Part shown: in pieces, positions 2,446 through 50,945 of the stretch | Numbering within the stretch: position 1 is the stretch's first letter | Layout of the letters: the number at the start of each line of letters is the position of its first letter | Source: Crassostrea angulata | Lineage: Eukaryota | DNA: 64,000 nt | Assembly (NCBI RefSeq): GCF_025612915.1 | Contig: NC_069115.1 | Location: 25,791,757-25,855,756 of the forward strand | Direction of reading: 5' to 3' | Notes under the pieces: model-generated | Databases searched by the model: none | The model's input: the letters and a program-made list of their open reading frames with translations, nothing else | What the model was told of the DNA's origin: nothing | Position numbers and translations under genes: made by a program

Positions 2446-3089
2446 TTTGTATTATTACTATTTTTTTTTCTCTTACTTACTTATGCTTACTAACACATGT
2501 AATACTATGTTGTATTATAATTTATATATAATTTATTAGACCCTTGACATCACAATTTAATGTAAATATGTTATTGTACCTCATGTACCATTGTATGATA
2601 ATGGTTTGAGAGAATAAATAAATTGAATTGGTAATGGTAATTTAATTGAAGAATTTAAGCAAGTAATTGTAATTTAATTAATTACTTTCCATTGTAATTG
2701 ACCTCATCCCTGCTTGTGTGGAAGCATTCTCAGGTAGGGTAGCTGCAAGTTCGTTCAAATAATGACCCTGGGGGTAGGGTGGGGTCACAAGATCCAGGGG
2801 GAGACGCAAAAATTTATTTAGGAATATATGGGGAAAATCCTTAAAAATCTTTTTTCTAAAAAAAATATTTTCCTAAGAAAGCTGAAACTTAATTGAAAGC
2901 AATCTCAGATAATGTAGATTCAAATGTGTTCAAATCAAAATCTTGAGTAGGGTAGGGCCATATTTGGGATCCAGTATTACAAAGGAACACATTTTAAATG
3001 TTCACAAAAGCTGAAATGTTATATTATATATTTTTACTTAATATATGCAATCATTTTGACATTTGTTGAGAATTTGGCTCTTAGACAAT

Positions 3090-3399
3090 ACTGGGACCTC
3101 ACAAGGGGTTCAGAGTTTGATGAAGGTTTATATCCTATATATAAACAATTGTTTAGGATCTTTTTGAGAACTGCAATGCTCAACATGTGATATGACTAAA
3201 AAATCATTTTGTTAGAAAAGGGAATAATGATAATAAACATAAGGATATCCAGAGGAAAAATGTATTTTTTTTATACATGATTTACATGTATTATACTAAA
3301 TTGTTTACTAGATAGTTTGTATTTAGACTACATTAAGCTGATTTTATCATATCTATTGTTCCTTAGATGAGCAATGAGGCCCATGGGCCTCTTGTTGAA
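3090..3399 (+). mobile_element. Family B non-autonomous element (about 310 bp) with the same 3' terminus as family A. It is an intact empty site for the family A insertion.
   Basis: ...cacaaggggttcagagtttgat...ggatcttttt|gagaactgcaatgctcaac...gagcaatgaggcccatgggcctcttgtt. Confidence 0.6.
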
Positions 3400-3776
3400 A
3401 GTTAACATACCTGGGGGAAAATACTTTGTATGGAAGCTGTGCACCTTTTCAGTAGTATGTCATAAACTCTGAAACAGCCATAGGTACTGTGCTAAACTAT
3501 AGGATTAAGAGTCCTTTCCAAATGAATTCAGACAGGGGGAAACTGAATTAAATGCATTTATGAGACTCCTCCACAATTTCATGTATGGGCTATGGTACTC
3601 ATGCCTATTGGCCTCTTGTTTTTACAATATTCTAGATTATTATTTAATTTGAATCAGAAAGATTTATGATTCAACAACTTTAGTTACTTTAATTCATATT
3701 TGTTCCATTTGAAATTTGCCTTGTGGGAGTCCCATTAGGAAAGTTCTATCTACTTTAATTTTGTAGAAATGGAGGT

Positions 3777-3846
3777 GGATTGGGAACAGGTGATATACGG
3801 AAGATGGCTTACTTTGAACAATCAATTGATCCTCAAAACCTTTCGG
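3777..3846 (+). CDS. MVP: MVP exon, phase-2 start. Encodes xNGGGLGTGDIRKMAYFEQSIDPQNLS, corresponding to human MVP LNKGQDPLADRGEKDTAKSLQPLAP
   Basis: Acceptor tttgtag and donor GTAACT. Reading frame continues into the next exon. Moderate similarity to MVP. Confidence 0.5.
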
Positions 3847-3985
3847 TAACTACAAGGATATTATCAAATGAAAATACATTTTTATGAATACAAGTCATAA
3901 GAACAAATGTAATAGACTAAGTATGATATTTAGGTTTTAACTTTTTTCATTTGATATTCAAGGTAATATTTTTGTTTATTTACAG

Positions 3986-4139
3986 GGAAGAGATAAGACA
4001 AGGGTCGTGACTTACCGTTGCCCATGTAACACAGCTGTACAAGTTTATAATTACCTGGAGAAAACTGCACGAGTGGTGTTTGGTCCTGATCTAATCATAT
4101 TGGGACCACATGAAAATTTTAATGTCCTCAGTCTCAGTG
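3986..4139 (+). CDS. MVP: MVP exon. Encodes [51 protein letters not shown], corresponding to human [50 protein letters not shown]
   Basis: Strong residue-level match to MVP. Acceptor ttatttacag and donor GTAAAT. Exon ends in phase 1. Confidence 0.85.
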
Positions 4140-4267
4140 GTAAATCAGTCAGGTTTCTTTGCAAAACTAATATCTATTGTGGTGTAAATGAAAATTTTCT
4201 TTTAAAGTAAAATTTCAAGGGATTTAAAATCTTCTTAGCCGTACAAATTTGAAAAAATTCATGTTAC

Positions 4268-4312
4268 CACACACACACACACACACACATATATATACAT
4301 ATATATATAAGA
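4268..4312. repeat. (CA)n microsatellite followed by (TA)n
   Basis: Visible directly in the sequence. Confidence 0.95.
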
Positions 4313-4346
4313 AGCACTAGCAAACCAACAACACTCGTTATCTAAA

Positions 4347-5519
4347 GTGTCGGATCAAAAGATACAAGGTTATAAGATGAGATATAAAAAAGCACTAAAA
4401 ATAACCAACGACACGAACAATAAAGTAAAATATTGTCAAATTTTCGGGACAACCCGTCCCTTCTTGGTTGACAACAGAAACAACCTCGATGATTTTATTA
4501 CCTTTGTCAATTCTTTCCATCATTCTATCAAATTTACGACTGAAATTTCCTCATTCAACAACACGTTTCTTGACACTACTTCAACTTTAGTCGATGGTAA
4601 ACTCGATTTCAATCTTCATACTAAACCTACAGATTCCCACCTCTATTTAATGACGTCTAGCTGCCACCCACCTCATACGTTTAGAGGCATACTAAAAGGC
4701 CTAGCCACCAGAGTCAGACGTATTTGTTCAACTCAAGAACTATACTCTGAGCAAAGTCAACTCCTAAAATCCCACTTATGTGCCAGGGGCTACAGCTTGC
4801 ACTCTGTACAGAATGCAATTGATGATTTAGCTAAAGAGGATCGTTTATCCCTTCTGAAATATAAACCCAAAAACGAAGACAACAAGGTCCCATTTGTCAC
4901 TACTTACCACCCTGTCCTTAGGGGCCTAAATGCAGTCCTAAAGAAGAACCTACCAATCCTTTACAGTAATGATAAAATGGTTGAGGTTTTCAAAAACCCC
5001 CCGATGGCAGCTTTCAAGCGCCCTAGAAACCTTAAGGACATGGTGGTAAGAACCAAACTAAAGAACCCTCTGCCTAATGGTGGCTTTAGAACTTGTTCTG
5101 ACACCAGATGTCTGTTGTGCAAACACAGCTCTGATGCAGACGACTTCTCTAGCCCCATTACTGGCCGTACTTACAAAATTTTCGCAAATACTTCTTGTCG
5201 TACGGACAATTGTGTATATCTTATCAATTGTAAATTTTGTCACAAACAATACGTAGGGGAAACAGGAGACCTCCGCAGGCGCATCAATAATCATCGTTCC
5301 ACCATCAAAACTAAGAAAATTAAAGAACCCGTCGGGGAACATTTTAATTTAGATGATCACAAATGGGAGGACATGATGGTTTTGGTCATTGATCACAACC
5401 CTAACTGGACAGATGCGGAGAGAAAAAATAAAGAAAAATTTTGGATGCATAGACTGAAGTCATTCCGCCCTGACGGCATTAACAAATTAAGTGACTTCAC
5501 CAAAATGAACATCAACTAA
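4347..5519 (+). CDS. PLE ORF: RT C-terminal remnant plus linker plus GIY-YIG endonuclease
   Basis: GIY-YIG motifs and CCHH-like finger, as described for the PLE above. Confidence 0.7.
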
Positions 5520-11914: not shown

Positions 11915-12775
11915 GTTAAAGCTGACATGAATTCATAAAAGCATTTGGTCGCCATATTAGTTTAGATCGCTTCTTTACTGCCACTGGGGTATATATACTG
12001 GTTGAGAAAGTTACGGTCGGTTGCTTTCCGATCGAGGCATTCACGTTGCACGGACTTCTAAATGCATGAACTACACATTGTTTATGTAGTAAAATGTAGT
12101 AATAAAGAATAAAGAAAACAACAATCAATGAAAAACCAAATATATTTTATTCTTAGAAAGGATGTCCAAGGTATCTGTATTATTTTGCACAGACAGTGCT
12201 GCCTTACCTCGCATGCACATCGAACATGTGTGTCGTTCATACAGAGTGCATAACGTCTGCATCTTCTTGAAAACTCTGGCGACACTACATCCAACACAGT
12301 AGCTAAATGATAGTAAATCCAAGAAAGTAACAACGTTTCTATCCGTTCCTACAAAAACTCCCCGTTTATAAAATCCATGCGATAATTGACATTGCTCGAT
12401 CTGTCACAGTGTGTTATTTGCGCATGTGCGATGTTATAACATACACAAGAAAACGGTCTACAATTATCGAGGAATTTCTGAAGTATCTGCGCCTGGATAT
12501 CAGTCTGTCTTGTTTCGTCGTTTATTGGATATATCTTGCCAGTGAAGTGGTTGTCATATTATTTTTGTTCAAAACACGTTTCACGAGTCTTTTCGTCCAA
12601 GGTAACGTGTTCGGGTGTATGAAATTCCTGAATGCGGTGAAGCATGACGAGGGCTCTCGGCCTTATATAGGGGGTGTGTAGCGATGAGCAGAACATAAAA
12701 ATCGACAACTAATATGGCAGTAGTCGGAGAAAAAAGGGAAGTAGTGCGTATTTATGAATTCATGTCAGCTTTAAG
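11915..12775. mobile_element. TIR element of about 860 bp with about 45 bp imperfect terminal inverted repeats (ttaaagctgacatgaattcataaa...gccatatt)
   Basis: The reverse complement of 12748-12771 equals 11918-11941. Both arms continue to gccatatt. Confidence 0.5.
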
Positions 12776-12874
12776 ACTTTGTCTCCAGGACAATTCTTTT
12801 GCCTCACAATTTAGAAGGTTCAGAGTTTGATGTAGCTTTATATCCCATATATAAACAATTGTTAAGGATCTTTT

Positions 12875-12890
12875 TAGCTCACCTGAGCCA

Positions 12891-12922
<32 letters not shown>

Positions 12923-13631
12923 GTCCGTTGTCTGTTGTTGTCGGCGTAGTCATCGTCGTCGTCGTTGTCGTCATCATAAACTTTTCACATTTTCATCTTC
13001 TAATCAAGAACCACTGGGCAGATCTTAAACAAATTTGGCACAAAGCACCACTAGGTAAAGGGGATTCAAGTTTGTTCAAATCATGGTCCCCGGGGGTAGG
13101 GTGGGGCCACAATTGGGGGATAAATTTTTATACAGGAATATATGGAGAAAATCTTTAAAAATCTTCTTTTTAAAGACTATTTGGCCAGAAAAGCTTAAAC
13201 TTGTGTAGAGGCATCATCGGGTAGTGTAAATTCAAGTTTTCAAAATCACAGTCCCTAGTGGTAGGGCGGGGCTGTGATGGCGGTTTTACATAGGAATATA
13301 TCGAGAAAATTTTTAAAAATATTCTGGGAAAGTTTTGCAGATTTATGTTTGATTGAACCATGATTCCCTAGAGAAAAGTGGGGCCATGAAATGAGGGGGG
13401 GGGGGGGGGGGGTATATAGGAATAGAGAAAAATCTTCTTACAGGTACAACAAAAGGGGCTTGGTATTTACCAAAAAAAAGGAGGTGGATAAAAATTGGCA
13501 GATTTTCAAATTTTTTAAGAAAGATCTACTGTACTAAGTTGTCAAGATATTTTGATACTGTAATGCTAATTTGATCTGAATTTAGGCAATTGTTGCTCAG
13601 GTGAGCGATGTGGCCCTTGGGCCTCTTGTTT
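12875..13631 (+). mobile_element. Family A composite element (pearl or Helentron-like): head, (GTCR)n-like tract, about 4 satellite monomers, then a tail. It is inserted into a family B element.
   Basis: Head is tagctcacctgagccaaaggctcaagtgagcttttctgatcac. Tail is ...gttgctcaggtgagcgatgtggcccttgggcctcttgtt. Empty paralogous sites at 3161-3166 and 41241-41246 show a precise insertion without target-site duplication. Confidence 0.7.
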
Positions 13632-13831
13632 GAGAACTGCAATACTCAACATGTGATATGATTATAAAATCATCCTATTAGAAAAGGGACTAATAACTAT
13701 AAACATAAGAATATCCAGGGGGGAAAATGGATTTTATTTATACAGGATCTACATGTATTATTGTACCGGTACATTGTCCAGATTGTTTGTATTATGACTC
13801 CATTAAACTGATTTTATCATACCTATTGTAC

Positions 13832-13863
<32 letters not shown>

Positions 13864-14299
13864 ATTTTAGTATCTGTTGTATTTGGTAACACTGAATGTC
13901 TGACAACCAAACATAACACCGTCAAACCAACAGACTTATCTTACAGGTACACAGAAGACAGCAACTCGCGTGTAAATTCGGAATTTCGGATTTATCACGA
14001 TTGCGCTAACATTACAAAAAATATAACTTTAAATTCAAACTCTGCATTGCTGCCATTATATATGCACAGTAAAGTTGTTAAGTACAGGCATGTAGCATCG
14101 TTTTTTAAAGGAAATAGGACAGAATAATCTGAAATCAGGACAAGCAAAAAGAAGAGACTCCTTATAAATTCAATTTTTTTTAGGTCACCCTGAATTTACT
14201 ATTGCTGTCCGTTTTCGTCCGCCGTCATGCATTAACAATTTACATTTCTAACTTCTTCTTAAAAACTACAAGGCTGATTGTTACCATTTTTGGTGTAAG

Positions 14300-15280
14300 G
14301 CATCTCTTTGGTAAGAGGAATCTAAATTGTGAAATTCATGTCTCTACCACCCCCAGGGCACCACATGTGGGGCCAAATATGCAAAAAAATAGCCAAATTT
14401 TCAAAAATCTTCTTCTCTACTCCCACACATGTGAGGAAAAAAGTGGTTACATAGTTATGATGTCCATGAATCCCTTAAACCAAAATTGTGAAATTCATGG
14501 CCCCTGGGTCAGGGGTTTTGGCTTTAGGGTGGGGCCAATATGCCCATATTGTAAAAATGTATTAAATCTTCTTCTCTACTACCAAAGATATTTGTTAAAA
14601 ACTAAATACATGATTATGATGTCCATGAAGCCTTCTACTTAAATTGTGAAATTCATGACCCTGTGTCAGGGGTTCAGGCTCGAGGAGGGGGGGGGGGGGA
14701 TATGGCCATATAGTAAAAATGTATTAATTTTTAGAAAATCTCTTCTCTACTCCCATATATATTTGTTAAAAACTAAATGCATGGTTATGATGAACATGAG
14801 GCCCTCTACCAAATTGTGAAATGCATGACCCCTGGGTCAGGGGTTCAGGCTAAAGGGTGGGGCCAATATGGCCATATAGTAAAAATGTGTTTAATCTTAG
14901 AAAATCTTCTCTACTCCCATATAACTCCACTAACTCCTCTACCTCAATTGGGAAATTCATGGCCCTTGGGTCAGGGGTTTAGAACATGAGGGGGGGGGGG
15001 CAATATGGCAATATAGTGTTAATGCATATGTTTTAAAATGTTCTTCTTTATTCTCACACATCTGTATAAAAAACTAACTTATAATTACGTTTACCAGGAA
15101 GTTCTAGTCTACTGAAATTTTAATTTTCATGTCCCCTGGAGTATGGGTTTTGACTCTAGGGCAGGGCGGAAATGGATGTAGAGCGCTAAGAGGTGTTGAT
15201 GCATATAATGTTAAAAAATTATCTTCTTTACTCCCACACACCTGAAAGGAAAACTGAATTCATGGTTTTGTAGACCAGAT
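14300..15280 (+). repeat. Family E satellite of about 7 units of roughly 150 bp, distantly related to family A
   Basis: Repeated attgtgaaattcatg.cccctgggtcaggggtt...gggtggggccaatatggccatat.gtaaaaatg...cttctctactccca. Confidence 0.75.
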
Positions 15281-21959: not shown

Positions 21960-24900
21960 TTATGGTTCTATGCACTATTAAAACTGCCAAACAACAGCAA
22001 CTACGATTACTACTACGTTTAAAACGGACTGAAACAAAAACTTCTGGAACCATTTATTTAAATTTTAAAAAAGGAAAAGAAAGTGTTAGTGTTTTAATTG
22101 ATCAAACCTTTCCAGGTACTCCCCTGGAAGAGTTATTTCCCTCTCCAAACACCATTGCCAAATCTGACTTGCAAGACTTATCAACTTCTTTGATTTTGTA
22201 CCCCCAATGTTGTTTATGTATGCTATCGCTACTTTGTTGTGCGATTGCAATAGTGCGTGCTTTTTTAAAATTTTCGACTGAAAACAATGAATTGCTAAAA
22301 ATGCTGCTTTGAGCTCTAACTCGTTTATGTGCTGATCTCTTTCGTTTTCCATCCAAAGACCGCCCGTTTTTGTATTTTGACAAATTGCACCTCAACCTCT
22401 CAGGCTTGCATCTGATTTGACAATAATGTTTGGTTGGGGACGGACTAAAGCTCTCCCGTTCCATTTGCTTAGTTTTGAAGACCACCATATTAGTTCTTGT
22501 TTCGAATCCTCGTCTAATTGTACATGATGCTCGTAATTCCCTCCGGTATGCAGGGCTCTTGTTTTTAATAACTTGAGACTACTGTAATGAAGAGGTGAGG
22601 GTAGAACCCCTTGATTTGTAGCTGTCAGACGTCCTATTATTAGGGCCCCGCAAGGATTTGCGGGTGCCCTATAGTAATCACTCTGTCCGTCCGTCCTTCT
22701 GTCCGTCCGTCCGTCTGTCACTCTTCCGTCCACAAATTTCCTGTTTTTTTCTAATAACTTTTTTTATGGTTGCCCAATCAAGTTCAAATTTGGTATGGTA
22801 GTTCAGTAGGCAGAAATACATATTTTGATGCTAAGTTTGGTTCTCTATGTCTTCTGGTTTGGAGCTGGGGTGGTGGGGTAGATTCATAACTATGCATAAG
22901 AAGAATGGGCAAAGAGAGATAACTGCTGAGAATGAATGGGCAAAGAGAGATAACTGCTGAGAATGTTACCATTGTATACATGGAAGGCTGTGCAATATTT
23001 GTCCTTTGGGATTAATTAACCTTCCACAGGAAGAAAATCCTAAGCTTTATCTTTATCTGTCACATTGAGATTAATTACTGCACTGCCTGTGTCTGCAAAT
23101 GAACTTTGTTTTGAAGTTAAGGTCAATTTTGAATGATGTGTAGTATTGTGTACATTCTTTGAAATATGGATTTGAAATATAATATTCATATTTTTGGGGG
23201 TTAAAATACCGTACACAATGATTTATGATAGTTTTATTGAATAGAGGCAAAGCCTAGGTATCATTGCATTGGTATCAATTCTTTGTTTTTTTAACAAATT
23301 TTATTTCATCCCATGTTAACCCACTTTATCCCGTGGATATGACTCATTGGATATTTTTTTGATATTCCAGAGTTGTGACTTTACAATGGGATTTGCCTAG
23401 GCATAATGAAGTAAAAATAATGTAGAGTTTTATAAACAGTGTAAACATTGATTGCGGTGTATAAAATATGGGATAAATAGAATCTCATGATTTGTAGTAT
23501 AATATGATTTTTATCCAACTTGTGTGTTTTATCCCCTCACTAAGGCTCAAGAAAAAAACACTTTAATTGTTGGATGAAAATCATATCCAACTACAAATCA
23601 CGAGATCCTATATATTCCAGTTCTTTACATCTTCTGCCGGGCATTTATTTTTCATCATTGTTAATATAAAGAGGATGGAATTCAAAGTTTTTTTCACTTC
23701 TCTATATTAATTGTCATAGCGGGGCCCTTCCTGACTGGTCAGTTTTCTAGTTTGGGCTAGATCCCGAGCAGAGACAGACTGACGACTCACAAGATCTAAG
23801 CAATTCTGCTTTATCTTTATCACCTTTTCTTTTGGGAGAGAGAGGGTCATTGTTTCTGAGTTTACAGTGAATCCCAGAAATTCAGTTACATGTGAAGGGA
23901 CTAGAACTAACTTTTCCTGATTGATCAAAAACCCTAGATTCTCTAAGAGATAGACAGCTGTTGACAGATCTGATTGAATGCCTGTGAGAGGTAAACACAC
24001 GTGGTGCTATTGCAATTCCAAATGGAAGGGATGTATTAAACTCCATTATTTTGTTTTTCCAAAAAAATTTCAGAAATTTTCGAAATTTCTCTGCCACGTT
24101 TATTGTCAGGTACGCATCTTTTAAATCTAGTTTTACTAACCAATCTCCCTCTTCCATGAGATCTCTTAACAGCTGTATCCCCTCCATTTTGAAATGCTCG
24201 TAAGGGAGAAAACTGTTCAGATTTTTTAGATTTATTACAGGCCTTAACTCGCCCCCCTTCTTCATTACCAAAAATACGTTGCTGTAAAAGGAATCGCTTG
24301 TGGGAGTTGTCTCCCGTACCGCATTTTTCAACACTTAATTCTCTATTTCGGAATCTATCAAAATCTGTTTCTCTGATTTGAATTTCGATGGAATCGGAAT
24401 TTTTCCCTTGAAAGGATTTGATAATATGGGAATTTCTATCCCTTTGATTGATTGAAGGATCCAAGGATCCCGTGTAATTACTTTCCAATTCTGATAGAAA
24501 TGTTTTACACGTCCCCCAACTGGCACTGACTGGGGAATTTCTACAGCATTGAAAAACAGGAATTTTGATAGATTCCGATCGATCTCTGATAATTCTACCC
24601 GTTTTAGACTCACCTGATTCACTGAGTGACTGATTTCTTGGGAGGTACTGTATATTTCTGGTTTGCTCCCTGACCCTTGAATTGTGGGTACTTTGTGTAT
24701 CTCTGATTCTGAGTGAACTGCCTCCTGTCTGTCTGTCTGCGACCCCCATACTGGAGGCTTGATGAGGGTCTCTGTAGAAAAAACTGGCGGTTTCTGTCAG
24801 AAAACTGTCTTGTTTGTGACCAAACTTTCTTATCACTGCCATTAAACAATAGCTGTTTTAATTCTTTATTATCTTTGTTATCTTTCGCTAATTGTTTAAG

Positions 24901-25900
24901 AAAATGTTTCCCAAATAAATCACTTTTACATTTTCCCAATGATTTCTTGTACCTTTTTTCAGAAAGCACATCTACAGATTCTGGCATTGTTTTAGCTAAC
25001 ACTGCCTTACACCTATTAGTAATGAAAAGGAAATGGGCATTCCCTACAAACATAATCGCTCTTTGGACAAACTGAATAACATCAGAGGGGTCCATGCCCT
25101 TGCCTGTTTTGCTTATTCGCTCTGCCTCGCTCCTATAACAGAAAGTGGCCCTAAAGCATCTAAAATTCTCATCTGGGTATTTACTTTATTTTTCTCTAAC
25201 TTTCCATTCCATTTTTTACCCTTGAAAAATATTTTCTTGAAAAATATGTCCAAAGACAAGCCCTGAAGCTTTTTAGAATGAGGTATGGGACAAATCTTAG
25301 CAATAGCCTGTCTGTTCTTTTTGTTAATCCCTTTTGTTGCGTACGTAGTGACAAATTTCAGAATCTTTTTAGGGATTTTTGGCTTATAATTTGTGCTCTC
25401 AGAACATTAGAATAAATCAGAGTCCGAGTCAGACTCGGAACTAGAGCTTGAGGAGGAGCTAGAGGAGCTAGAACTAGAGGGACTTGAACTTGAGCTTGAA
25501 TCAGTTGATGTTTTGCTTTTCTTGCGTTTTCTAGAGCTTGAGCGTGTTCTAATAGAAACATCGCCGGACTTACTTTTTTCATTCCGAATTTGCTCTGACG
25601 ACCACTGCCGCCTTAAATCATCCTCTGTCTTATCAGCCACAGATACATGGTCTACTTCACATTGAGAGTCCTCTGACTCATCTACCTTTGTATTATCGCT
25701 CTCAACCGCCTCTGCGGGTGAGCTTTCTCTTTCGTCATGAGCCGGCGTAGCCTGTCCAGGCCCCGGCGAACGAAGTTGGGCATTAGCACTCCGAACACGT
25801 AAACATGTGTACACACTTGGCGAGCTGAATTGAAAGTCATCGATTGTATCTATCGAACGGTTAGGGTTTACCTGGGGCATGCGCATCAGGGGTTTCATAC
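21960..25900 (-). mobile_element. Degenerate DIRS-like (or LTR-type) retroelement 2, disrupted by a nested insertion at about 22641-23724
   Basis: RT motifs KLDLKDAY, LPFGIAIAPRVFT and FLGFTVNSETMTLSLPKEK at 23707-24334. RNase H motifs IVKSDASLRG and ELKAAFLAIHCF at 22086-22733. Gag-like and Ser-rich ORFs at 24619-25898. Multiple frameshifts. Confidence 0.55.
22641..23724. mobile_element. Nested non-autonomous element inside DIRS-like element 2. It carries a (GTCC)n microsatellite and has termini GGGCCCCGC and GCGGGGCCC.
   Basis: It interrupts the continuity of the RT and RNase H reading frames. The 9-bp GC-rich termini are inverted copies of each other. The (GTCC)n tract at 22681-22720 resembles the microsatellite module of the family A and family C elements. 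Confidence 0.35.
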
Positions 25901-29419: not shown

Positions 29420-29990
29420 TGCAACTCCTATATCTAAGTTATTTATTTGTCCTATCTTCACCAAACTTGCATGGATGATGCATCTGAACCTACTTATGGA
29501 CTTGAAAGACTTGGATGCTGCATTTGGCCAATTAATTTGATAGCAATTTCTAATTAACTACTGGTCCTGACCTCACCAAACTTGCATGTATGGTGAGTCT
29601 TATTGTACGGATGCACCAAGCAGGTTTGAATGCTGAATCTGAGTTGTAGGTTTTGGATGCTGGAGGAGGTTAAGGTTTTCAGAGCTGGTAAAGTTTTTGG
29701 AGCAGGTGCCCTCTGCTGATTATATCTTTGTTATTACTGGTCCTAACTTCACCAAACTTGCGTAGATGGTGCATCTTATGATACTGATGCTCCTGACAGG
29801 CTTGAATGCTGAATATGAACCATAGGTTTTGGATGCTGGATGAGGTTAAGTATTTTATAGAACAGGTCACATGTTTTATGGATAATAGTACTATTTCAAA
29901 CTTGCAAAGTTGATATTTAATATCAATGAATCGCAGAGGTATCTTCAGATGCAGAGCTTGATATTTGTTGCCAAGGAAACTCCTACCTCA
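29420..29990 (+). repeat. Family F tandem repeat of about 3 units of roughly 185 bp
   Basis: Repeated ggtcctaacttcaccaaacttgc...gatgc.cc.gacaggcttgaatgctgaatctgag..taggttttggatgctgga.gaggttaaggtttt.agagctggtaaagtttttgga.caggtgccctctg.tgattatatct. Confidence 0.7.
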
Positions 29991-38127: not shown

Positions 38128-39901
38128 CCCTCTTTAAAAGGGAGATAATTGAGAATTATTGAAAATTTGTTGGTACTTTTCAAAAATCTTCTTTTAAAAA
38201 ACTATTCGGCCTGAAAAGCTTAAACTTGTGTGGAGGCATCCTCAGGTAGTGTACATTCAAGTTTGTTCAAATCATGGTCCCAGGGGGTAGGGAAGGGCTA
38301 CAAGAGGGGGATCAAGTTTTACATAGGAATATATAGACAAAATCTTTAAAAATCTTCTTTTCAAAAACTATTTGGCCAGAAAAGCTCAAAGTAAAGTGGA
38401 AGCATCCTCAGATAGTGAAGATTCAAGTTTGTTCAAATCATGGTCCCCAGGGGTAGGGTGGGGCCACAATTAGGGGATCAAGTTTTACATAGGAATATAT
38501 AGAGAAAATCTTTAAAAATCTTCTTCTCAAAAATTATTAGGCCAGAAAAGCTCAAATTAAAGTGGAAGCATCCTCAGGTAGTGTAGATTCAAGTTTGTTC
38601 AAATCATGGTCCCCGGGGATATGGTGGGGCCACAATGGGGGAATGGATTTTTACATAGGAATATATAGAGAAAATCTTCTTCTCAAAAACTATTCAAATT
38701 AAAATGAAAGCATCTTCAGGTAGTGTAGATTCAAGTTTGTTCAGATCATTGTGCCTGGGGGTAGGGTGGGGCCACAATAGGGGGGATCAATTAAGTTTTA
38801 CATAGGAATATATAGAGGAAATCTTTAAAAATCTTCTTCTCAAAAACTTTTAGGTCAGCAAAGCTCAAATTTGAGTGGAAGCATGGATTTTTACATAGGA
38901 ATATATAGAGAAAATCTTCTTCTCAAAAACTATTCAAATTAAAATGAAAGCATCTTCAGATAGTATAGATTCAAGTTTGTTCAAATCATTGTCCCTAGGG
39001 GTAGGGTGGGGCCACAATTAGGGGATAAAGTTTTATACAACAATATATAGAGAAAATCTTTAAAAATAATTCTTTTAAAAATTATTTGCCCAAGAAAGCT
39101 CAAATTGGCGTGTAACCATCCTCAGATAATGTAGTTTCAAGTCTGTTCAAATCATGGTCCCTGGGGGTAGGGCGGGGCCACAATGGGGGATAAATTTTTA
39201 TAAATATAGAAAATCTTTAAAAATCTTCTCAAAACTATTAGGCCAGGAAAGCCCAAATTTGAGTGGAAGCATCCCCAGATCGTATAGATTCAAGTTTGTT
39301 TAAATAATAGTCCAGGGGTATGGTGAGACCACAATGGGGGATGAATTTTTACATAGGAATATATAGAGAAAATCTTTAAAAATCTTCTTTTTAAAGACTA
39401 TTTGGCCAGAAAAGCTCAACTTGTGTAGAGGCATCCTCGGGTAGTGTAAATTCAAGTTTGTAAAATCACAGTCCCTAGTGATAGGGCGGGGCCGTGATGG
39501 CGGTTTGAATTTTTACATAGGAATATATAGAAAAAATCTTTAAAAATATTCTGTGAAAGTTTTCGGTCCAAAACTCAGTATTTAGTGTGAAAGCACAGGT
39601 TATGCAAATTTAAGTTTAATGAAACCATTATTCCCTAGAGAAAAGTGGGACCACGAAATGGAGGTGGGGGGGGGGGGTATATAGGAATAGAGAAAAATCT
39701 TCTTACAGGTACAACAACAAAAGGGGCTTGGTATTTACCCAAAAAAAAAAGAGGTTGATAAAAATTGGCAGATTTTCATTTTTTTTTTTAGCAAGATCTT
39801 AGTACTTAGTTGTCAAGATATTTTGATTCTGTAATGCTAATTTGATTAGAATTAAGGCAATTGTTGCTCAGGTGAGCGATGTGGCCCCTGGGCCTCTTGT
39901 T
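37935..39901 (+). mobile_element. Family A composite element: head, about 10 monomers, tail
   Basis: Same head (37935) and tail (39860-39901) as the 12875 copy. The terminal monomer variants are shared with the copies at 12875 and 56215. Confidence 0.7.
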
Positions 39902-40142
39902 GTTTCTCATTTGATGAATTAGACTTAACATCTTTGATTCCCCAATCTTGGTTAAAAAGCAGTTCATAGTTAAATAAACTTGTACCAAAAATAATTTGAA
40001 AAATTGTTAATTCATACTTCATCTTATTTGGATTCTTTTTTTAGTTTAGTTGTTCTAAAAGTCATTAAGATTTTTATTAATCCATACTTAGAATAATTTA
40101 TGTTTTGTTCAGTCGTATCATGAATCATTCGTTTTTTTAGCT

Positions 40143-40239
40143 CACCTTAGCTGAAAGCTCCAGTGAGCTTCTCTGATCACTTTTTGTCTGGGGTCCATCG
40201 TTCTGTCTGTCTGTCCATCTGTCTGTATACTTTTTAGCC

Positions 40240-40277
<38 letters not shown>

Positions 40278-41060
40278 TTTTTGTCCTGTGTCCATCTGTC
40301 TGTCCGTCCGTCCATCTGTCTGTCTGGCTGTAAACTTTTTACATTTTCAACTTCTTCTCCAGAACCAATTGACCAATTTCAATTAAACTTGACACAAAGC
40401 ATCATTTGGTAAAGGGGATTCAAGTTTGTTAAAATGAAGGCCTTTCAAGGGGACATAATAAGGATTTATTAAAAATTTGTTGATATTTTTCATAAATCTT
40501 CTTCTCATAAACCATTTGGCAAGAAAAGCTGAAACTTGTTTTGAAGCATCATCAGATAGTGTAGATTCAAGTTTGTTCAAATCATGATCCCCGTGGGTAA
40601 GGTGGGGCCACAATGGGGGTCAAGGTTTTACATAGAATACACTGAGTAAATCTTTAAAAATCTTCTCCTCAGAAACCAATCAGCATGGAAAGCTGAAACT
40701 TGTAAGGAAGCATTCTGAGTTAGTGTAGATTTGAAGTTGTGAAAATCATGTCCCCTGGGGATAGGATGGGGCGAAAATGGGGAATCAAACTTAAACTTAG
40801 GAATATATATATTGTAAATCTTTTAAAATCTTCTTCTCAAACACCATTTGGCCAGAAAAACTAATTTATAAAAACTTGTGTGGAAGCATCCTCAATAAGT
40901 ACAAATTTAAGTTTTCTAAAAACCACTAAAGCTTCCCTAGAAAAGCTGTAACTTTACTGACAGCAACCTCAGATAGATTCAACTTTTTTCATATCAAAAT
41001 CTTGAGGAGTAGGGTGGGGCCACATTGAGTATCCAATTTTACAAAGAAAAATATTTTAAT
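40143..41060 (+). mobile_element. Family A element with a duplicated head (40143 and 40243), GTCY-rich tracts and about 4 monomers. No tail.
   Basis: Two tandem heads, ttagctcaccttagctgaaagctccagtgagc and tagcccacctgagctgaaagctcaagtgagc. Confidence 0.6.
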
Positions 41061-42507: not shown

Positions 42508-43499
42508 GTCAAAATCAAACGATCAGTAAATTCTAACTATTTCTGACTATACAAATTGCATTTATTTCATATAACAGTGGATATGATACATAAAGCAAGC
42601 TTCAGATTCTGAGCCTGATCTTGATTATCAAAGTTGTAAAGAAAATAGAACATCTTTATATGATACCAATAGAATAATAAAACTGTTTATTGTATTACTA
42701 AAATAACAAGACATTACATTTTTCTTCACATTCATCATATTATGATACACATGTATATATAGTCCACTTTGATTTGGATAAATATAATAATAATGGTCTC
42801 AAATAGTTCTCACAATGTGGGGTGGGCTCTGTAATCTTTTATTACCTGGTTGTTTTAGAAAACTGTGTAACTCTTTTTTTTTTAATTCTTCTTTTACTTC
42901 ATCTATGGGAGTCACTTCTCTGTGCATATATAGCAGACCATATTAAATTGATTTCCCATTTCACAATCATTTCCTAGCATACTGTAGGAATTGAATTGAT
43001 GCAAAATGTAGGGTCATCAGAAAATTGCTGCATAGAATTCTGTCACATAATCTAATTGTTTTTTTAAATTCAAGGAAAACTCTTTTCAAATGTAGTTAGA
43101 GGGTAAGATGAACATAAACTGTAAGTTTCATTGCTCTTGCTACATTGGGACCCTTTAGGCTGGACCAAAATAGCCAAAATTTGACAATTTAAAAGAAAAA
43201 ATAATTTATTCTTCTTCTACACTTCCGAAAATTATGAATCATTGTAATGTAGACAAATTAGGTGTAAAAGAGGTATAGCGCCTATTCCCATTATTTCGCC
43301 TACACCTGTGTTTTGACGCTAAGTATCTGTTACTAAAAATAACTTTAGGTACCAAGCTCTCCCAAAAGTATTTTCTAAACGTAAATACCGATTTTATAAT
43401 GGTGTATGTAACAACTGATTTGTCATAAATTCATGATGTCAGTTGATTCTCTGAACTGTGATAAGTTCAAGCAAAATGCAATGGATCTTATTAAGAAAT

Positions 43500-43590
43500 T
43501 AAGTACAAGTTTTTGTGAATGTTGCAGAATAACCTTTGAGGTCGAGAAATATTGTTTTGAAATATAAAAACCGAGGCGTTAGCATACCTG
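43500..43590 (+). repeat. Solo copy of the 3' end segment of the 470 bp unit, located on the opposite side of the SWIM/YqaJ ORF
   Basis: gtgaatgttgcagaataacctttgaggtcgagaaatattgttttgaaatataaaaaccgaggcgtt matches the unit ends at 47195-47265 and 47670-47730. Confidence 0.7.
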
Positions 43591-43699
43591 TTAACCATTC
43601 AAAGCTGCTATGTGGGAGAATCTCCCCCTTACCAACTTGGCTAAGGGGGAGATTTTGTGTAAACGACATTTTTTCATGTGAAATGCAAATATATATTAA

Positions 43700-44480
43700 A
43701 AATACTGTTAGATACCTTATTTTAGGTTTTTAGAGCTGGTTAAAGTTTTTGAAACAGGTGCCCTTTGATGATTATATCTTAGTTACTACTTGTCCTAACT
43801 TCACCGGACTTCTATGGATGGTGCGTCTAATGATACTTGTGCACCAGACAGGCTTGAATGCTGAATCTGAGCATAGGTTTTGGATGCTGGAGGAGGTTAA
43901 GGTTTTTAGAGCTGGTTAAAGTTTTTGAAACAGGTGCCCTCTGATGATTATATCTTAGTTCTTCCATAAAACATGTGACCTGTTCCAAAAAAAACTAAAC
44001 CTCATCCAGCATCCGAAACCTATGGCTCAGATTCAGCATTCAAGCCTGTCAGGTGCATCAGTATACATAAGATGCATCTCCATGCAAGTTTGGTGAAGTT
44101 CAGACCAGTAATAACTAAGATATCATCATCAGAGGGCACTAGCAATTAAAACCTTAACCTGCTCCAGCATCAGATTCAACATCCATGCCTGTCAAGTGCA
44201 TTTGTATCATAAGACACACCATCCTTTCAAGTTAGGTGAAGTTAGGACCTGTAATAACTAAGATATATTTTTTAGCATCCTTGATAATGGAGATCAAGCT
44301 CTGCATCTGAAGCTTCCTCTGTGATTCATTCATATTACAGTTTAATTAACTATGCAAGTTTGAAATAGTACGGTGCGTCTTATGATACTGATGCACCTGC
44401 CAGGCTTGAATGCTGAGTCTGAGCCATAGGTTTCAGATGCTGGATATGGTGAAGTTTTTGGAACAGGTCACATGTTTAAT
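43700..44480. repeat. Family F units arranged + + then - - then +, forming an inverted-repeat block
   Basis: 43720-43960 is in the + orientation. 43960-44300 is the reverse complement. 44370-44480 is + again. Confidence 0.7.
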
Positions 44481-45155
44481 AGATAATAAATAAATCACAG
44501 TAATTCGCAAATCCTTATATCCTTTATGATATGCGTTTAAAGGTGTTCCGCATACTAAGTCAGGTAGTTCTAGTTACCTCTGCAAAGAAACTCAGTGACT
44601 ACTTGATTGTTTGTGCTGCATTGGTAAATCTGCGATCTGATCTTATTAAAGATGATGATGATGAGTGACAGATGATATTTGAAAGTTTCAGTAATGTAAC
44701 AGTAAATGATGCATGATAATATTTGAAGGTTTCACTGATGTAAATGACACAAAGTTGAAACATGAATAATAGATTTGTATTAGGTTTTATATACCAGTCT
44801 AATTAAGGTCCAGTTCATGATTCCTTGAGTATATCTGCTCATAATATGACAAATAATAAATAATGTATTTTAGGCAAAGTCAATGCCATATATTGAATTA
44901 AGACTATTGTTATAAGTCTTTATTAATATGATGTGAATTAAATTCTTCATCAAAAATATTTTTTTAAAAATGTAATTGGGTTTAATTGAATATAAGAGGA
45001 TGTTGTGATAATGAACTTATTTTGAATACTCTTCATGTTCAGGAATAAATAATTAACACAGATTGAAAAATAGTTGACTGTATAATTTCAGCATTAAGTC
45101 TGAGACATCAAAAACTTCATTTAACTACATGTACATGTGTATACTCGTGTATGCA

Positions 45156-46613
45156 TCAGTTAGAAAATTTAACATATTTTTTACTAATTTTAAATCTGCC
45201 ACATTCAAAGTCATCAACTACTCTTGGTAAAAGTTTGTTGAAGTAAAAACAACATAGTCTTGAAATAGCTGCTTCACAAAACTGTTGGTCATATTGTACA
45301 TCAATGACCTTGTATTCATTAGTTGTCCAAATAACAAGTTTGCACAGCTGCATATGTGTTACATGCAAAGTTAACTGCATTTGAAGGTAATAGCCCCTTG
45401 AACTGTTATGCTTAAAATATAATGTACCATTTTGCAAGGATTTCACAACATCATATTTACCAATTGTAAATAAGCTGTCAAGTGTTTGATCATTCTTAAG
45501 TATTGGACATTTAATTTCCAAAAGACATTTTGAACCATCAGCATTGGTTACTATTCCATCTGGGGAAACACTTAGCCAGGGCTCTTCACCTTCTTGTCCA
45601 TGTCTAGTAAATTTGTTTGATGTGAAGGAAGGGTACATATGTTCTCTTAAGAAGTTATCACTATTTGTAGTGTCACGAACGGGAACCTTGTGGTGCTCAG
45701 TACTGCCAGTTATTCTTATTTTTCTACTGTTGTGCCACAATTCAGATTCACTTTGTGAAATTGTTGCCATCGATAACGATTGAATTTGGGCATCATTAAG
45801 TTTAATGTACATGTACCTGTTATAAAACGCACAACACTTTTCACAAGATAGTTCACCTGTATGCTCAGTACGAGGCTCGGATGAAGATTCGAAAAGAGAT
45901 TTGTTTATATTTGCGTGCATAGATTTACTTAAAAGTGAATTTTCTAAAAGAAATAATTCTTTAAGTTCTGAGTTTTCCACAAAATATTTAAAAGATTGAT
46001 ATGATACAAACATTGGGAAGATAGATTTTGTATTTTGTGGTTTTTCAGTATTGTTGTTAACCTCACTGCCATATTTAGGTTTTTTAAAGTCCATCTCTTC
46101 AAGAACACCTGGTTCAAGGTTTCTTGTCGCACCCTTATTCCACTGCATCTGCTCATCTGTACAAGATTTTCCCGTAAAACCTAACCTTACAGCATGCTCA
46201 ATTTTCCACAAAAGTGCGCCTACATGACTGCACGTTTTACTGTTCCCAGCCATACATGAACATCCCCCGTTTAGAATTGTGCCGATCATATCACAGAATA
46301 CCCATGCATTGTGAAACTCTGAATTTATTTTTTGTGACGGGCGCACTTCAGATTTCAGAATAACTGTATTGTGAATAACAAAATGAAGAATTTTCCCGAC
46401 AGAACCGCTTTTAAAATAATTGTAACTGTCCAATGATTTGTAATTTTTCATTTTTTCGCCGTCACATGCTCTACTTAAAATCAAATAATTGTAGATATCG
46501 CCATATTCTACTTGTGGCCACTCACGAATGTCATCCTTCCATTCACCGGTTTTGACGTCTTTTTGGGAAGAAATCATTCGATCAGTATCTTTTTTGCATT
46601 GACTCTTATCCAT
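45156..46613 (-). CDS. Intronless 485-aa ORF encoding a SWIM-type zinc finger plus a YqaJ/lambda-exonuclease-like PD-(D/E)xK nuclease
   Basis: SWIM signature CSCMAGNSKTCSHVGALLW (CxCxnCxH). YqaJ-type motifs ITGSTEHH, WLSVSPDGIV and KCLLEIKCP (motif ExK). ATG at 46611-46613 and stop at 45156. No internal stop codons over 1458 nt in an AT-rich region. TTTATT on the + strand at about 44930 would be the minus-strand poly(A) signal. Confidence 0.7.
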   Translation of the reverse strand: MDKSQCKKDTDRMISSQKDVKTGEWKDDIREWPQVEYGDIYNYLILSRACDGEKMKNYKSLDSYNYFKSGSVGKILHFVIHNTVILKSEVRPSQKINSEFHNAWVFCDMIGTILNGGCSCMAGNSKTCSHVGALLWKIEHAVRLGFTGKSCTDEQMQWNKGATRNLEPGVLEEMDFKKPKYGSEVNNNTEKPQNTKSIFPMFVSYQSFKYFVENSELKELFLLENSLLSKSMHANINKSLFESSSEPRTEHTGELSCEKCCAFYNRYMYIKLNDAQIQSLSMATISQSESELWHNSRKIRITGSTEHHKVPVRDTTNSDNFLREHMYPSFTSNKFTRHGQEGEEPWLSVSPDGIVTNADGSKCLLEIKCPILKNDQTLDSLFTIGKYDVVKSLQNGTLYFKHNSSRGYYLQMQLTLHVTHMQLCKLVIWTTNEYKVIDVQYDQQFCEAAISRLCCFYFNKLLPRVVDDFECGRFKISKKYVKFSN

Positions 46614-46800
46614 GATTTACATAAACGAAAAATATAATACAGTTTCATATAACAAAACTTTGCTAGCAAGAATTTTATGTTACCGGGGAATGGTTGCTAC
46701 CGCGTTTGTTTATCCAGCGTCACGGTTACAATGGCGGCTGTTTTCCGCGACACCTATCGGGATGAAATTTTACTAAGGGAAATAACTGAAAAAAGTCGTC

Positions 46801-48310
46801 TATTGATCAAAGGAGTCACATGCAGATGACAGAAATTTTCTTTGGATTTTTAATACTCTTCACTTATTTATAAAATATCTTTGAATCATATTCCTAATAT
46901 TTTAAGGGCAATTTAATACGATTATTACTACTACACGTTACATATTTTATTTAAAAACACGCAGTGAAAAAGTGCTAGGGAGGAGGTCCTAGGAACAGCC
47001 GCATTGATCTTTTAACAATAAACATTTGAGGCAATACACATCGTTTTGACTGGAACTAGGACTTGAAAATGACAAAGTTTTAAAACTTTTTCAATTTGAA
47101 GTTGTACTTTCATGATCAGTGCAAGAAAGGTAGGTATTTCTGATCTGATAATTTACTGATGACATTTGTGGTATATTTAAGAAATAAGGTATGAGTTATC
47201 GTGAATGTTGCAGAATAAGCTCTGAGGTTGAGAATGTTGTTTTGAAATATAAAAGCCGAGGTGATGTGTATCGATCAAAGGAATCACGTGCAGACGACAG
47301 AATTTTTTCTTGGGATTTTAATACTCTTCACTTATTTTTAAAATACCTTTGAGTTATATTCCTAATATTTTAAGGGCAATTTACGATTATTACTACTACA
47401 CGTTATATATTTTATTTTAAAAACACGCAGTGAAAAAGTGCTAGGGAGGTCATAGAAACAGCCGCATTGATCTCTTAAAAATGAACATTTGAGGCAATAC
47501 ACTTCGTTTTGACTGGAACAAACACGTGAAATTGACATGGTTTTAAATCTTTTTATGGTTTGAAGTTGTACTTTCATGATCAATGCGAGACAAAAAGGTA
47601 TTTCTGATCTGATAATTTACTGATGACGTTCGTGGTATAATTAAGAAATAAAGTACGAGTTGTCTTGAATGTTGCAGAATAACCTCCGAGGTCGAGAAAT
47701 GTTGCTTTGAAATATAAAAGCCGAGGCGTTAGCCGAGGCTTTTATATTTCAAACAACATTTCGAGACCGAGGAGGTTATCCTGCAACATTCACGAAAACA
47801 AGAACTTTATTTCTATTCTACTAAAATGTAACAGCCCAGTATTTCTATACAGTTCGTTTCTCCTATAGAGAGACGATGTAGGTCATTTTGAAGGCTGTTC
47901 CGTGTAACCCCAACGGTTTTGTTAGTAATGTTTACATGTGTATCGATCAAAGGAATCGCATGCAGACGACAGAATTTATCTTTGGATTTTTAATTCTCTT
48001 CACTTAATTGTAAAATATCTGTGAGTTATATTCCTAATATTTTAAAGGCAATTTTATACGATTATTACTACTACACGTTATATATTTTATGTAAAAACAC
48101 GCAGTGATAATGTGCTGGGGAGGTCCTAGGAACAGCCGCATTGATCTCTTAAAATTATCATTAGAGGCAATACACATCGTTTTGACTGGAACTAACACGT
48201 GAAACTGACATGGTTTTAAAACATTTTAAAGTTTGAAGTTGTACTTTCATGATCAGTGCGAGACAAATAAGTATTTCTTATCTGATAATTTACTGATGAC
48301 GTTCGTGGTA
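46801..48310 (+). repeat. Tandem repeat of three ~470 bp units. The third unit is separated by a ~200 bp spacer that contains a palindrome.
   Basis: Units start at 46801, 47272 and 47941. Each begins tcgatcaaaggartcac and ends gtgaatgttgcagaataa...aaataaaagccgagg. Confidence 0.8.
47667..47795. repeat. Head-to-head palindrome formed by the 3' end motif of the 470 bp unit. Arms are 47667-47727 and 47735-47795.
   Basis: The reverse complement of the right arm matches the left arm at about 85% identity. The centre is gccgaggc gtta gccgaggc. Confidence 0.75.
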
Positions 48311-49074
48311 TATTGGAGAATAATGTCCGCGGCATCTCTTTGATCTTGGCAATAACTGTAGTAGAATAGAGAATAATGTCCGCGGCATCTCTTTGATCTC
48401 GGCAATACTGTAGTAGAAGTGTAAATAGAGTATATGTATAGTGTTATTGAAAAGATCTGTTTATACTATTCTTTTCATGTTTCAATTAAGTAAAAACATA
48501 TTTACTACTTGGCGGATTCAATCCAGCAACCGCAAAATCTAACAGACCACCTTTGGTATTTCATCACAGGACATATTATGTCCGTAAGCTTTAATTGAAT
48601 TTTACCTAATAAGTAGTTATTGTAAAATTAATTAAAAACCTACATTCATTTTGATAAACCAACCCGAATTAGCAAAAATGAGATTAAGGTGGTGGACATG
48701 CTTTGGCGGATCCAAGTCAGTGGTAGTTTGTATCAAAATATACTCTGCATTGAAATGATATAATTGCATTATTATGTAAGAGTGAATATATATACCGGTA
48801 ACTAAATTATAGTATGACAAAAATTAAGATTTGACAAATGTTGAATAAATAAAATGCACCAATTCGTTTTTGGAATGTGCGATTTTAGTTTTGATACAAA
48901 GAACTTTCCAGTACTGGGTAACTAAGAAGGCGGTTTGACTATATAATTGTCGCAATGGCAGAAAAAGTAAGACGAAGTTTGAGGTACTTCACTACACCGA
49001 GACTTATACTTTTTGAGACAATAAGTCACAAGATGGCGATTTAAATGTTTTGTTAAACTGTTTGTATCAATCTA

Positions 49075-49160: not shown

Positions 49161-50945
49161 TTGTTCATGTTTACTGAATGAAATTTTTGAAAATATAATT
49201 TATCTATAATTGCACATTTTTTCGCTTATTAAACATATATACTTCTTATCCATCATGCTTTCTATCATAATCAAGTAATTTTCTATTTCAACTATTTCAA
49301 GGTGTAGTGAGGCACCTTAACACTCATCGGACAGCCTCCTTGGATAATGAACTTTGGTTTAGAATATGCATGCATTTGTGCTTTAAGATTACATTGCATT
49401 TTTATACCACTGAAAGATAGCTATATACATGTACATGTATATTACGTATATCAGGTTTTTTCTGCGTCATGTTTTTTCCGCGAATCGCAGCCTAGAATGG
49501 TAACTATATAAAATTTATACAAATCAAATTTGCACTATTTCAAGTCACATTGAAAATATATATAATTCACGATTGTTTAAACTTGTGAGGTAAGAGGGAA
49601 AAAGCCTCTAAAATGTTGATCTTTGTAATGAAAAATTCGGACAATGAAACCATTTTCACAATTTCCTTAATGTGAAAGTATTACCGATAATTATTTTCAG
49701 AGATGCAAACAGTCATAGATGTACTGTTACATATACTGGTAGCTCATCGGTTTGCGTAAGGAAAGCGACCGTTTTAATTAGCTTGTTAATGGATTATTCA
49801 GTAAACAACAAGGCTTACAAGGCGGGGTTCAAAGTTTAACAAAGAAATTCATAGGTAAAATGTTTAAAAATCTTCTTCTCAAGAACCACAGCACCAGAAA
49901 AATCCACACAAAAGGTTGTATATAGTGAAGATTCAAAATTGTAAAAATCTCGACCCTCGGTCCAAAACTGGGGCCCCTGGCGGGGTTAAAAGTTTATCAT
50001 AGAAATACATAAGAAAAATGTTTACAAAATTTTTGTTCCATTTATTCAACTAAATTGTGCACCAAAATACCCAAATGTGTCTCCCTGATTATTGACAACT
50101 CATTGCATAAGTATATAAGTTTGTTTAATCAAGAAATGACGGATGAATACGATAAAGTGTAAAAATTCACTAAATATTATTTTAGTTTATCGCTTACAGT
50201 TTAATTGGAGACTGTGCCGAATAAAAATAAAGATTAATATGTAAAGGACTATGTGCGGTTTGGTCAAATATCTGCCCCCAATTTTAACCAATTTTTAAAT
50301 ATTACTGTATATAAATCAAATCTTCATAAATCAATGTACAGTGGACGCCTTTCACTTTAATCTTGATTTTAGTCATCATTGCGCATTCGCTGTTTATCTA
50401 TGACGTCATCCAAATGACCTAATTCTCGCAAATGTGCAAACAATCAAAAATATTCTCATTTTTGCTTTATATTTTGCATTCGGAAATATAGAGCACAGGT
50501 CTGCTCAAGTACGATTTTAACATATGTTTTTAGGGTCTTTCGTCTTCAGCGGAAGACCCTACTATTATTCTATTGTTTCTTTTTCACTTTTTTTCTTTAT
50601 TATTAAGGTCTTCCGTTTTCAACGGAAGACCTTATTGTTTTCGTTAGGTTTCATTTGACCTATTATTTTTCTTGTTTTTTTTCCTGCACCAAATTTTTCA
50701 AAACCATATACATTAAAAACAATTCGACGGATTTTCACGAAATTTTCACAGATAAAAGGGAGTACCTAAAGCTATGCATACGCATCTTTTCGAATATGAC
50801 GTCACTTCCGTTCGTCAACGTCGTTCAATTTACTTTTTTCAAAAATTCATTTTGTCCAGCAAATATTTAAAAAATGGTTGAAGATAGAAACTTCAAATTT
50901 TCAGCGATGATAGATCTACCTTTGGAAGGATGCCCTTAGGTTAAA

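Follow-up and report, generated by a model that had tools for sequence, protein, structure and literature searches.

An open reading frame in a one-ended transposon relic

We analysed a 64-kb stretch of the Crassostrea angulata genome (hereafter the window; NC_069115.1, positions 25,791,757 to 25,855,756 of the forward strand), in which the longest open reading frame (ORF) is a 485-codon frame at 45156-46613, predicted to encode a SWIM-type zinc finger fused to a YqaJ/lambda-exonuclease-like nuclease. This ORF very probably belongs, as the accessory gene (ORF2), to a cut-and-paste DNA transposon of ISL2EU type, within the PIF/Harbinger-ISL2EU-Spy (PHIS) superfamily, and the copy in the window is a decaying, one-ended relic of such an element, of low interest in itself. 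The parts of the relic, including the region of its single terminal inverted repeat (TIR), are listed below in positions of the window, with reference to contig L009, which carries a whole related element, and to the 506-amino acid (aa) homologue P0001, encoded on contig L003.

45156-46613, minus strand: ORF2, encoding the SWIM-finger and YqaJ/lambda-exonuclease protein; 485 aa from ATG to stop, open, internally deleted
46179-46556, minus strand: N-terminal SWIM-containing domain (residues ~20-145), with the CxC...CxH core at 46224-46262
45159-45761, minus strand: lambda-exonuclease-like (YqaJ) nuclease domain; Asp (SPDG) and E-x-K (LEIKCP) kept, motif I Glu and first core strand lost
45585-45588, minus strand: junction of a 72-bp in-frame deletion at a 4-bp TGAA microhomology; P0001 residues 340-363 removed, BLAST segments overlapping by 4 nt
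46614-46719, minus strand: 5′ untranslated or promoter-proximal part between TIR and ORF start; zero differences from L009 329-434
46720-46801, minus strand: left TIR region of the ISL2EU element; outermost base 46801, terminus reading AGACGACTTTTTTCAGTTAT...
46802-46803, minus strand: AT dinucleotide abutting the TIR, a target or target-site-duplication half-site; all related flanks end in AT
44669-45155, no strand: spacer between the convergent genes, homologous to L009 1956-2440, differing by 8 substitutions and an insertion of 2 bp
44534-44668, plus strand: remnant of the transposase gene, comprising the last 44 codons and stop (RLKVFRILSQ...KDDDDE*); 97.7% identity over 44 aa in tblastn with the L003 transposase fragment

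The G+C content of the window is ~33-35%, with a stop probability of 0.071 per codon, i.e. a stop expected every ~14 codons, and the probability of 485 open codons at this base composition is ~3e-16, so a chance origin of the ORF can be discounted. The encoded protein contains the motifs GGCSCMAGNSKTCSHVGALLW (CxC...CxH), WLSVSPDG and LLEIKCP. The original prediction of a 485-codon minus-strand frame without internal stops was confirmed from ATG to stop, but its description as intact applies to the open frame and not to the protein, which has a 24-aa in-frame deletion in the nuclease domain, a 2-residue insertion, and a 1-residue insertion with adjacent changes.

Similarity to every related contig starts exactly at 46801, and the 25-nt terminus found there is single in the window. 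The AT next to it belongs to the target rather than to the element, since uninterrupted units of the adjacent 468-bp repeat carry the same AT. At the opposite side the similarity breaks off at 44534, in the 3′-terminal part of the transposase gene, a point beyond which the longer related contigs extend into DDE_Tnp_4. Searching the 64-kb window by tblastn with two transposases (E<=10) identified no further transposase, and neither a pattern search with 3 mismatches nor blastn-short with the right end of L009 identified a second TIR in the same 64 kb. With one end and no transposase, the window copy should be able neither to transpose nor to be mobilised. An inverted-repeat-rich repeat, with arms of 75-98 nt that are 78-93% complementary, is present at 43721-44488 (within 43584-44533) and again at 29429-29962; its copy at 43721-44488 lies directly at the truncation point (44534), and may be linked to how the transposase was lost.

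The full-length element and its assignment to ISL2EU

Contig L003 is 98% identical to positions 44534-46803 of the window, and then runs into a convergent gene, of which a 238-aa fragment represents a DDE_Tnp_4 transposase with HTH_Tnp_4 (5.8e-48). A whole element is contained in the 5010-bp contig L009, also 98% identical to 44534-46803, with the following features in contig positions:

435-1955, plus strand: YqaJ ORF, the ORF2 of the full-length element
2441-3688, minus strand: transposase exon with HTH_Tnp_4 (Pfam, 2e-14) and DDE_Tnp_4 (Pfam, 2.2e-47)
4140-4439, minus strand: transposase exon with THAP (Pfam, 1.2e-7)
241-267 and 4506-4532: TIR arms, from inverted-repeat pairing; the terminus at 247-267 pairs with 4506-4526
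297-328 and 4443-4474: subterminal inverted repeats, from inverted-repeat pairing

The L009 element spans ~247-4526 (~4.3 kb), starts with AGACGAC, has imperfect TIRs and is bordered by AT on both sides. Its THAP exon and its HTH/DDE exon are separated by an intron-like gap of ~450 bp (3689-4142).

The same pairing of genes was found in other animals. In Mytilus galloprovincialis (L001), a 45%-identical ORF2 is followed by a convergent 561-aa ORF (12620-14305) that is uninterrupted and holds the THAP, HTH and DDE_Tnp_4 domains in a single frame, with no convincing pair of TIRs for this element among 152 inverted repeats. Likewise, the ORF2 homologue of Ixodes scapularis (L019) has a DDE_Tnp_4 homologue with a THAP segment behind it in convergent orientation, and in the fish Coilia (L020) a THAP-like fragment alone adjoins the ORF2 homologue, where a full transposase was not found. 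Among 23 related contigs, at least 10 unrelated flanks precede the same TIR terminus and every flank ends in AT, which demonstrates independent insertions with the target preference of ISL2EU.

ISL2EU elements have been described as combining a transposase with DDE, HTH and THAP domains and, as their second ORF, a gene for a YqaJ-exonuclease protein, with AT target-site duplications, a mean length of ~4.8 kb and an occurrence in animals only (PMC4482050, PMC4122938, PMC9179366). The transposases of L009 and L001 have all three domains, the window keeps only the last 44 codons of the transposase gene, and the AT is present on both sides of L009, in the left flanks counted above and on the left side alone in the window. 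Together, the gene pair of the L009, Mytilus and Ixodes elements and the AT of L009 match published ISL2EU, the start of the TIRs being the one compared feature that departs, and the transposon is therefore not an uncharacterised one. Of the two origins originally proposed for the ORF, a domesticated gene or a gene of an uncharacterised DNA transposon, the DNA transposon was correct, but the transposon was already described and the domestication is unsupported.

A search of the protein collection with the window protein gave 83 homologues, and the named ones are all from animals, covering bivalves, gastropods, ticks, fish, a priapulid and a hemichordate (Mytilus, Dreissena, Ruditapes, Mercenaria, Mizuhopecten, Haliotis, ticks, fish, Priapulus and Ptychodera). 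The closest homologues are 506-aa proteins encoded on short-read contigs, P0001 with 92% and P0002 with 79% identity; over aligned columns the identity with P0001 is 97%. The 90% cluster of the family includes frameshifted and truncated members. A second subfamily (L004-L008; Logan ERR13868504 and others) has 83% DNA identity and TIRs starting with ACACGAC, and the same P0002 is encoded on all five contigs, in different flanking DNA, suggesting that these elements were active recently. ORFs of this type that have been annotated in molluscs as 'uncharacterized protein' or 'endogenous viral element' are likewise transposon genes.

The two halves of the protein and the decay of the window copy

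Residue conservation was assessed in a family alignment of 57 sequences, using P0001 numbering. Pfam YqaJ (PF09588) was detected in 57/57 relatives, and in the window protein with an E-value of 3.7e-6 and 27.7 bits (cut-off 22), the latter match being limited to positions 84-149 of the 150 in the profile; NCBIfam gave a partial, sub-threshold lambda-exonuclease match to the window protein (27.8 bits versus a cut-off of 68). When compared with the PDB, the family profile matched LHK-Exo (9.6e-27), mimivirus R354 (3.6e-22) and lambda exonuclease (4.6e-20), as well as herpesvirus alkaline nucleases (E down to 4e-8), and the predicted fold agrees with these matches in placing the family within the lambda-exonuclease fold. 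Residues S302, E340, G358, D373, E387 and K389 are invariant (57/57), likewise T152, and A343 is kept in 53/57. By sequence, profile and predicted fold, the nuclease half of the family is assigned as a PD-(D/E)xK nuclease of the YqaJ/lambda-exonuclease type, and the original recognition of such a nuclease with its Asp and ExK is borne out by the Pfam and PDB profile matches, the predicted fold and the invariant D373, E387 and K389.

The conserved core of PD-(D/E)xK nucleases includes the motif I helix with its Glu, and the first core strand. The window ORF has the Asp and the Glu-x-Lys (SPDG and LEIKCP), and retains D373, E387, K389, R295, S302 and the QxQ motif, but lacks the equivalent of P0001 residues 340-363, and so does not have the complete nuclease core found in its full-length relatives. 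In the alignment with the 506-aa proteins, this 24-residue deletion takes out E340, A343 and G358, and a protein made from the window ORF would most likely be nuclease-dead.

In the N-terminal half, the SWIM signature of the window ORF is C118-x-C120...C128-x-H130. In 45-51 of the 57 relatives the CxC...CxH positions are filled; most of the others have gaps there, and C120 is substituted in three. The Pfam model for SWIM (PF04434) had no match in the window protein at E<=1, and was matched by 5/57 relatives, at best with 2.2e-5 and 24.3 bits (cut-off 19.6). In the structural model the CxC pair closes a strand and the CxH opens a helix, as expected for SWIM, and the family profile gave a marginal match to ZSWIM8 in the PDB (E 0.053). 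The predicted SWIM finger was therefore recovered as a CxCxnCxH motif that is conserved across the family, but not as a PF04434 match of the window protein, and the origin of SWIM fingers in MULE/MuDR transposases, which had been brought up alongside it, is irrelevant to the ISL2EU-type element present here. Distant YqaJ relatives (P0030-P0068) carry PHD fingers (16/57) or SAP domains (4/57), and judged from these sequences the accessory modules on this nuclease vary among animal lineages. The three ISL2EU papers open to searching do not mention the N-terminal SWIM-type domain of ORF2, and a literature search for SWIM together with YqaJ returned irrelevant matches only. The sole new detail of our analysis is that the accessory nuclease of ISL2EU is explicitly recognised as carrying a conserved SWIM-type domain. 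This makes the description of the accessory protein more precise, as a conserved, putatively ZSWIM8-like SWIM domain joined to a lambda-exonuclease fold that is complete and has six invariant residues.

The TGAA-flanked 72-bp deletion in the window ORF is typical of slippage or end joining. We also considered the 72-bp gap as an intron, and rejected this as there is no GT...AG and a 4-bp TGAA direct repeat lies at its edges. The window copy has diverged from L009 by ~1.3% over the ORF and ~1.6% over the spacer between the genes, and the ratio of nonsynonymous to synonymous substitution (dN/dS) of the window ORF is 0.73 against L009 and 1.15 against L003, compared with 0.11 (dS 0.70) between the intact subfamilies represented by L009 and L004. 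When the L004 subfamily serves as outgroup for polarising the changes, ~9-10 nonsynonymous changes versus 1 synonymous change fall on the window branch, and ~3 of each on the L009 branch; one change on the window branch replaces Gly by Ser at a site conserved in at least 90% of aligned relatives. From these substitution patterns, the ORF2 family is under strong purifying selection as a transposon gene, and the window copy shows none. That the window frame has stayed open is presumably due to the young age of the copy (~1.3-1.6% diverged) and to its three coding indels happening to be multiples of three. What we found is essentially the outcome that the original prediction had named as its own refutation, i.e. 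a decayed copy of a known transposon family with frameshifted cluster members and a dN/dS of 0.73-1.15. As a finding about the window it carries little weight, being a broken copy of a type of transposon described more than 10 years ago.

An array of about three units of the 468-bp repeat, 85-89% identical, extends over 46798-48329 on one side of the element only, and a 94-bp fragment of the same repeat is located at 43490-43583. These are the "flanking 470 bp repeats" with which the ORF had been connected, a connection that fails since the array is one-sided apart from the 94-bp fragment, and is missing from the flanks of most other copies. The repeats were also rejected as element termini, given the one-sided array, the abutment of the TIR on a unit at the AT of uninterrupted units, and the unrelated flanks of most other copies; because the TIR abuts a unit at the AT shared by intact units, the array represents the insertion site and not a part of the element. 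The 468-bp units contain a hairpin-like inverted repeat (47644-47707 and 47751-47814). A long, satellite-like tandem array of ~166-bp units, 60-95% identical, occupies 38132-41054, with related pieces near 49829-50034. On the plus strand, ORFs of 473 aa at 910-2331, with a reverse-transcriptase domain (RVT_1, 3.3e-18), and of 390 aa at 4347-5519, with a GIY-YIG nuclease domain (6.6e-8), probably together represent a Penelope-like retroelement; the latter ORF has no polymerase domain of its own, and the 485-codon ORF is thus not the sole intact long non-polymerase ORF of the window, as had been stated. Finally, overlapping ORFs of 150-268 aa on the minus strand at 23882-25898, one with an RVT_1 match (5.8e-8), represent a fragmented retroelement.

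Interpretation and comparison with known systems

In an intact element, the DDE transposase would bind the TIRs via its THAP and HTH domains, excise the element and reinsert it. The ORF2 protein, a putative Mg-dependent 5′-3′ exonuclease of the lambda Exo/YqaJ type, may be tethered to DNA or to a partner protein by its SWIM domain, and could resect the double-strand ends created in transposition, either at the donor gap or at the excised ends. Such resection might steer repair to pathways based on homology or annealing, by which the element is restored or protected, and the ORF2 protein would then fill the slot held by the Myb-like protein in PIF/Harbinger elements. The ~4.3-kb copy of the L009 type, which appears intact with both genes, would be a suitable start for assays of the nuclease role.

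Several points weigh against this interpretation. ISL2EU TIRs usually begin with GG (PMC4482050), and those of the window's family start with AGACG or ACACG (AGACGAC in the window's own subfamily and ACACGAC in the subfamily with 83% identity), although 'usually' is the wording of the source paper. The placement of the transposase with ISL2EU rather than with Spy, Pangu, Nuwa or canonical Harbinger is a probable one, drawn from gene layout, domains and AT target. The role of the exonuclease in transposition is one that we infer entirely; the literature contained no experiment on any ISL2EU ORF2 that we could find, and the function of ISL2EU ORF2 is given as unknown in PMC4482050. The coding indels in the window copy are all in frame (6, 3 and 72 bp) and the lone non-coding indel is of 2 bp; three in-frame indels have a naive chance of ~1 in 27, which leaves a small possibility of some selection on the frame. 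Lastly, two contigs (L026 and L027; Logan ERR13868490 and ERR13868249) carry in positions 1-64 the window's own flank beside the TIR, far closer to it than other units of the array are (85-88%), and encode a 506-aa protein that is intact, the 72-bp deletion being absent. These may be alleles or orthologues of the window locus, which would make it a polymorphic locus, or chimeras of short-read assembly, the latter being an equally good explanation.

The in-frame indels would fit a gene in the service of the host, with ORF2 retained as an expressed, nuclease-dead SWIM protein, which might for instance regulate ISL2EU transposition or inhibit it in a dominant-negative manner. The openness of the frame over 485 codons, the restriction of indels that are not multiples of three to non-coding sequence, and the undamaged state of the SWIM domain and of the region upstream to the TIR are as expected for such a protein. 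We nevertheless regard it as very improbable, as the window branch has the excess of nonsynonymous changes described above, the coding part has diverged as much as the non-coding part, residues kept by most or all relatives are missing or altered, the deleted form has not spread among the listed cluster members, and the closest relatives are ordinary full-length copies of the transposon. Domestication is therefore unsupported, given a copy in a truncated element that has lost invariant nuclease residues and has no purifying selection on its own branch. There is little chance that selection has kept the deleted ORF open as a nuclease-dead SWIM protein which interferes with or regulates ISL2EU transposition, at a locus that may be polymorphic; if it has, the protein would represent a first step to domestication, or a repressor.

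A comparably slim chance is given to an ORF2 that still functions in trans, in which the 24-residue deletion is tolerated and the protein serves intact ISL2EU copies elsewhere in the genome. This would be in line with the retention of D373, E387, K389, R295, S302 and the QxQ motif, and with a divergence of only ~1.5% from intact copies, but the deletion takes half of the core helix with its 57/57 Glu and the first core strand with its invariant Gly, and the substitutions on the window branch are unconstrained. An endogenous viral element, i.e. an integrated herpesvirus-like or phage-like alkaline exonuclease gene, was ruled out on genomic context, with next to no likelihood left to it in view of the constant DDE_Tnp_4 transposase partner inside TIRs, the many insertion sites with an AT target, the lack of other viral genes nearby in the window and the animal origin of all named homologues.

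A decaying copy of an ISL2EU accessory gene thus remains the preferred reading, and its protein can be compared with several known systems. With lambda exonuclease, YqaJ and LHK-Exo, the ORF2 protein shares the conserved Glu, Asp and Glu-x-Lys, an N-terminal R...TAS motif and the QxQ motif. Unlike these nucleases, ORF2 is fused to an N-terminal SWIM domain (~280 residues with linker) and is encoded by a eukaryotic transposon rather than a phage; no Beta/RecT-like annealing partner as in phage recombination systems was seen beside ORF2, and the window copy is without the motif I Glu. The similarity to ZSWIM8 and other SWIM-finger proteins is marginal at sequence level, and ORF2 differs from them in having no cullin-ligase context. 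PIF/Harbinger elements, which encode a transposase and a Myb-like protein, resemble the present element in having a related DDE_Tnp_4 transposase plus a second protein from a gene of its own, but here the second protein is a nuclease with a zinc finger instead of a Myb/SANT DNA-binding protein, and DNA binding is presumably provided by the THAP domain of the transposase itself. The closest correspondence is with ISL2EU (Han et al. 2014, 2015): although the window copy has one end alone and no transposase, and the TIR starts differ as discussed, the family shares with ISL2EU the layout of a THAP, HTH and DDE transposase with a YqaJ-exonuclease second ORF, the AT at both ends of the insertion, a length of ~4-5 kb and the restriction to animals.

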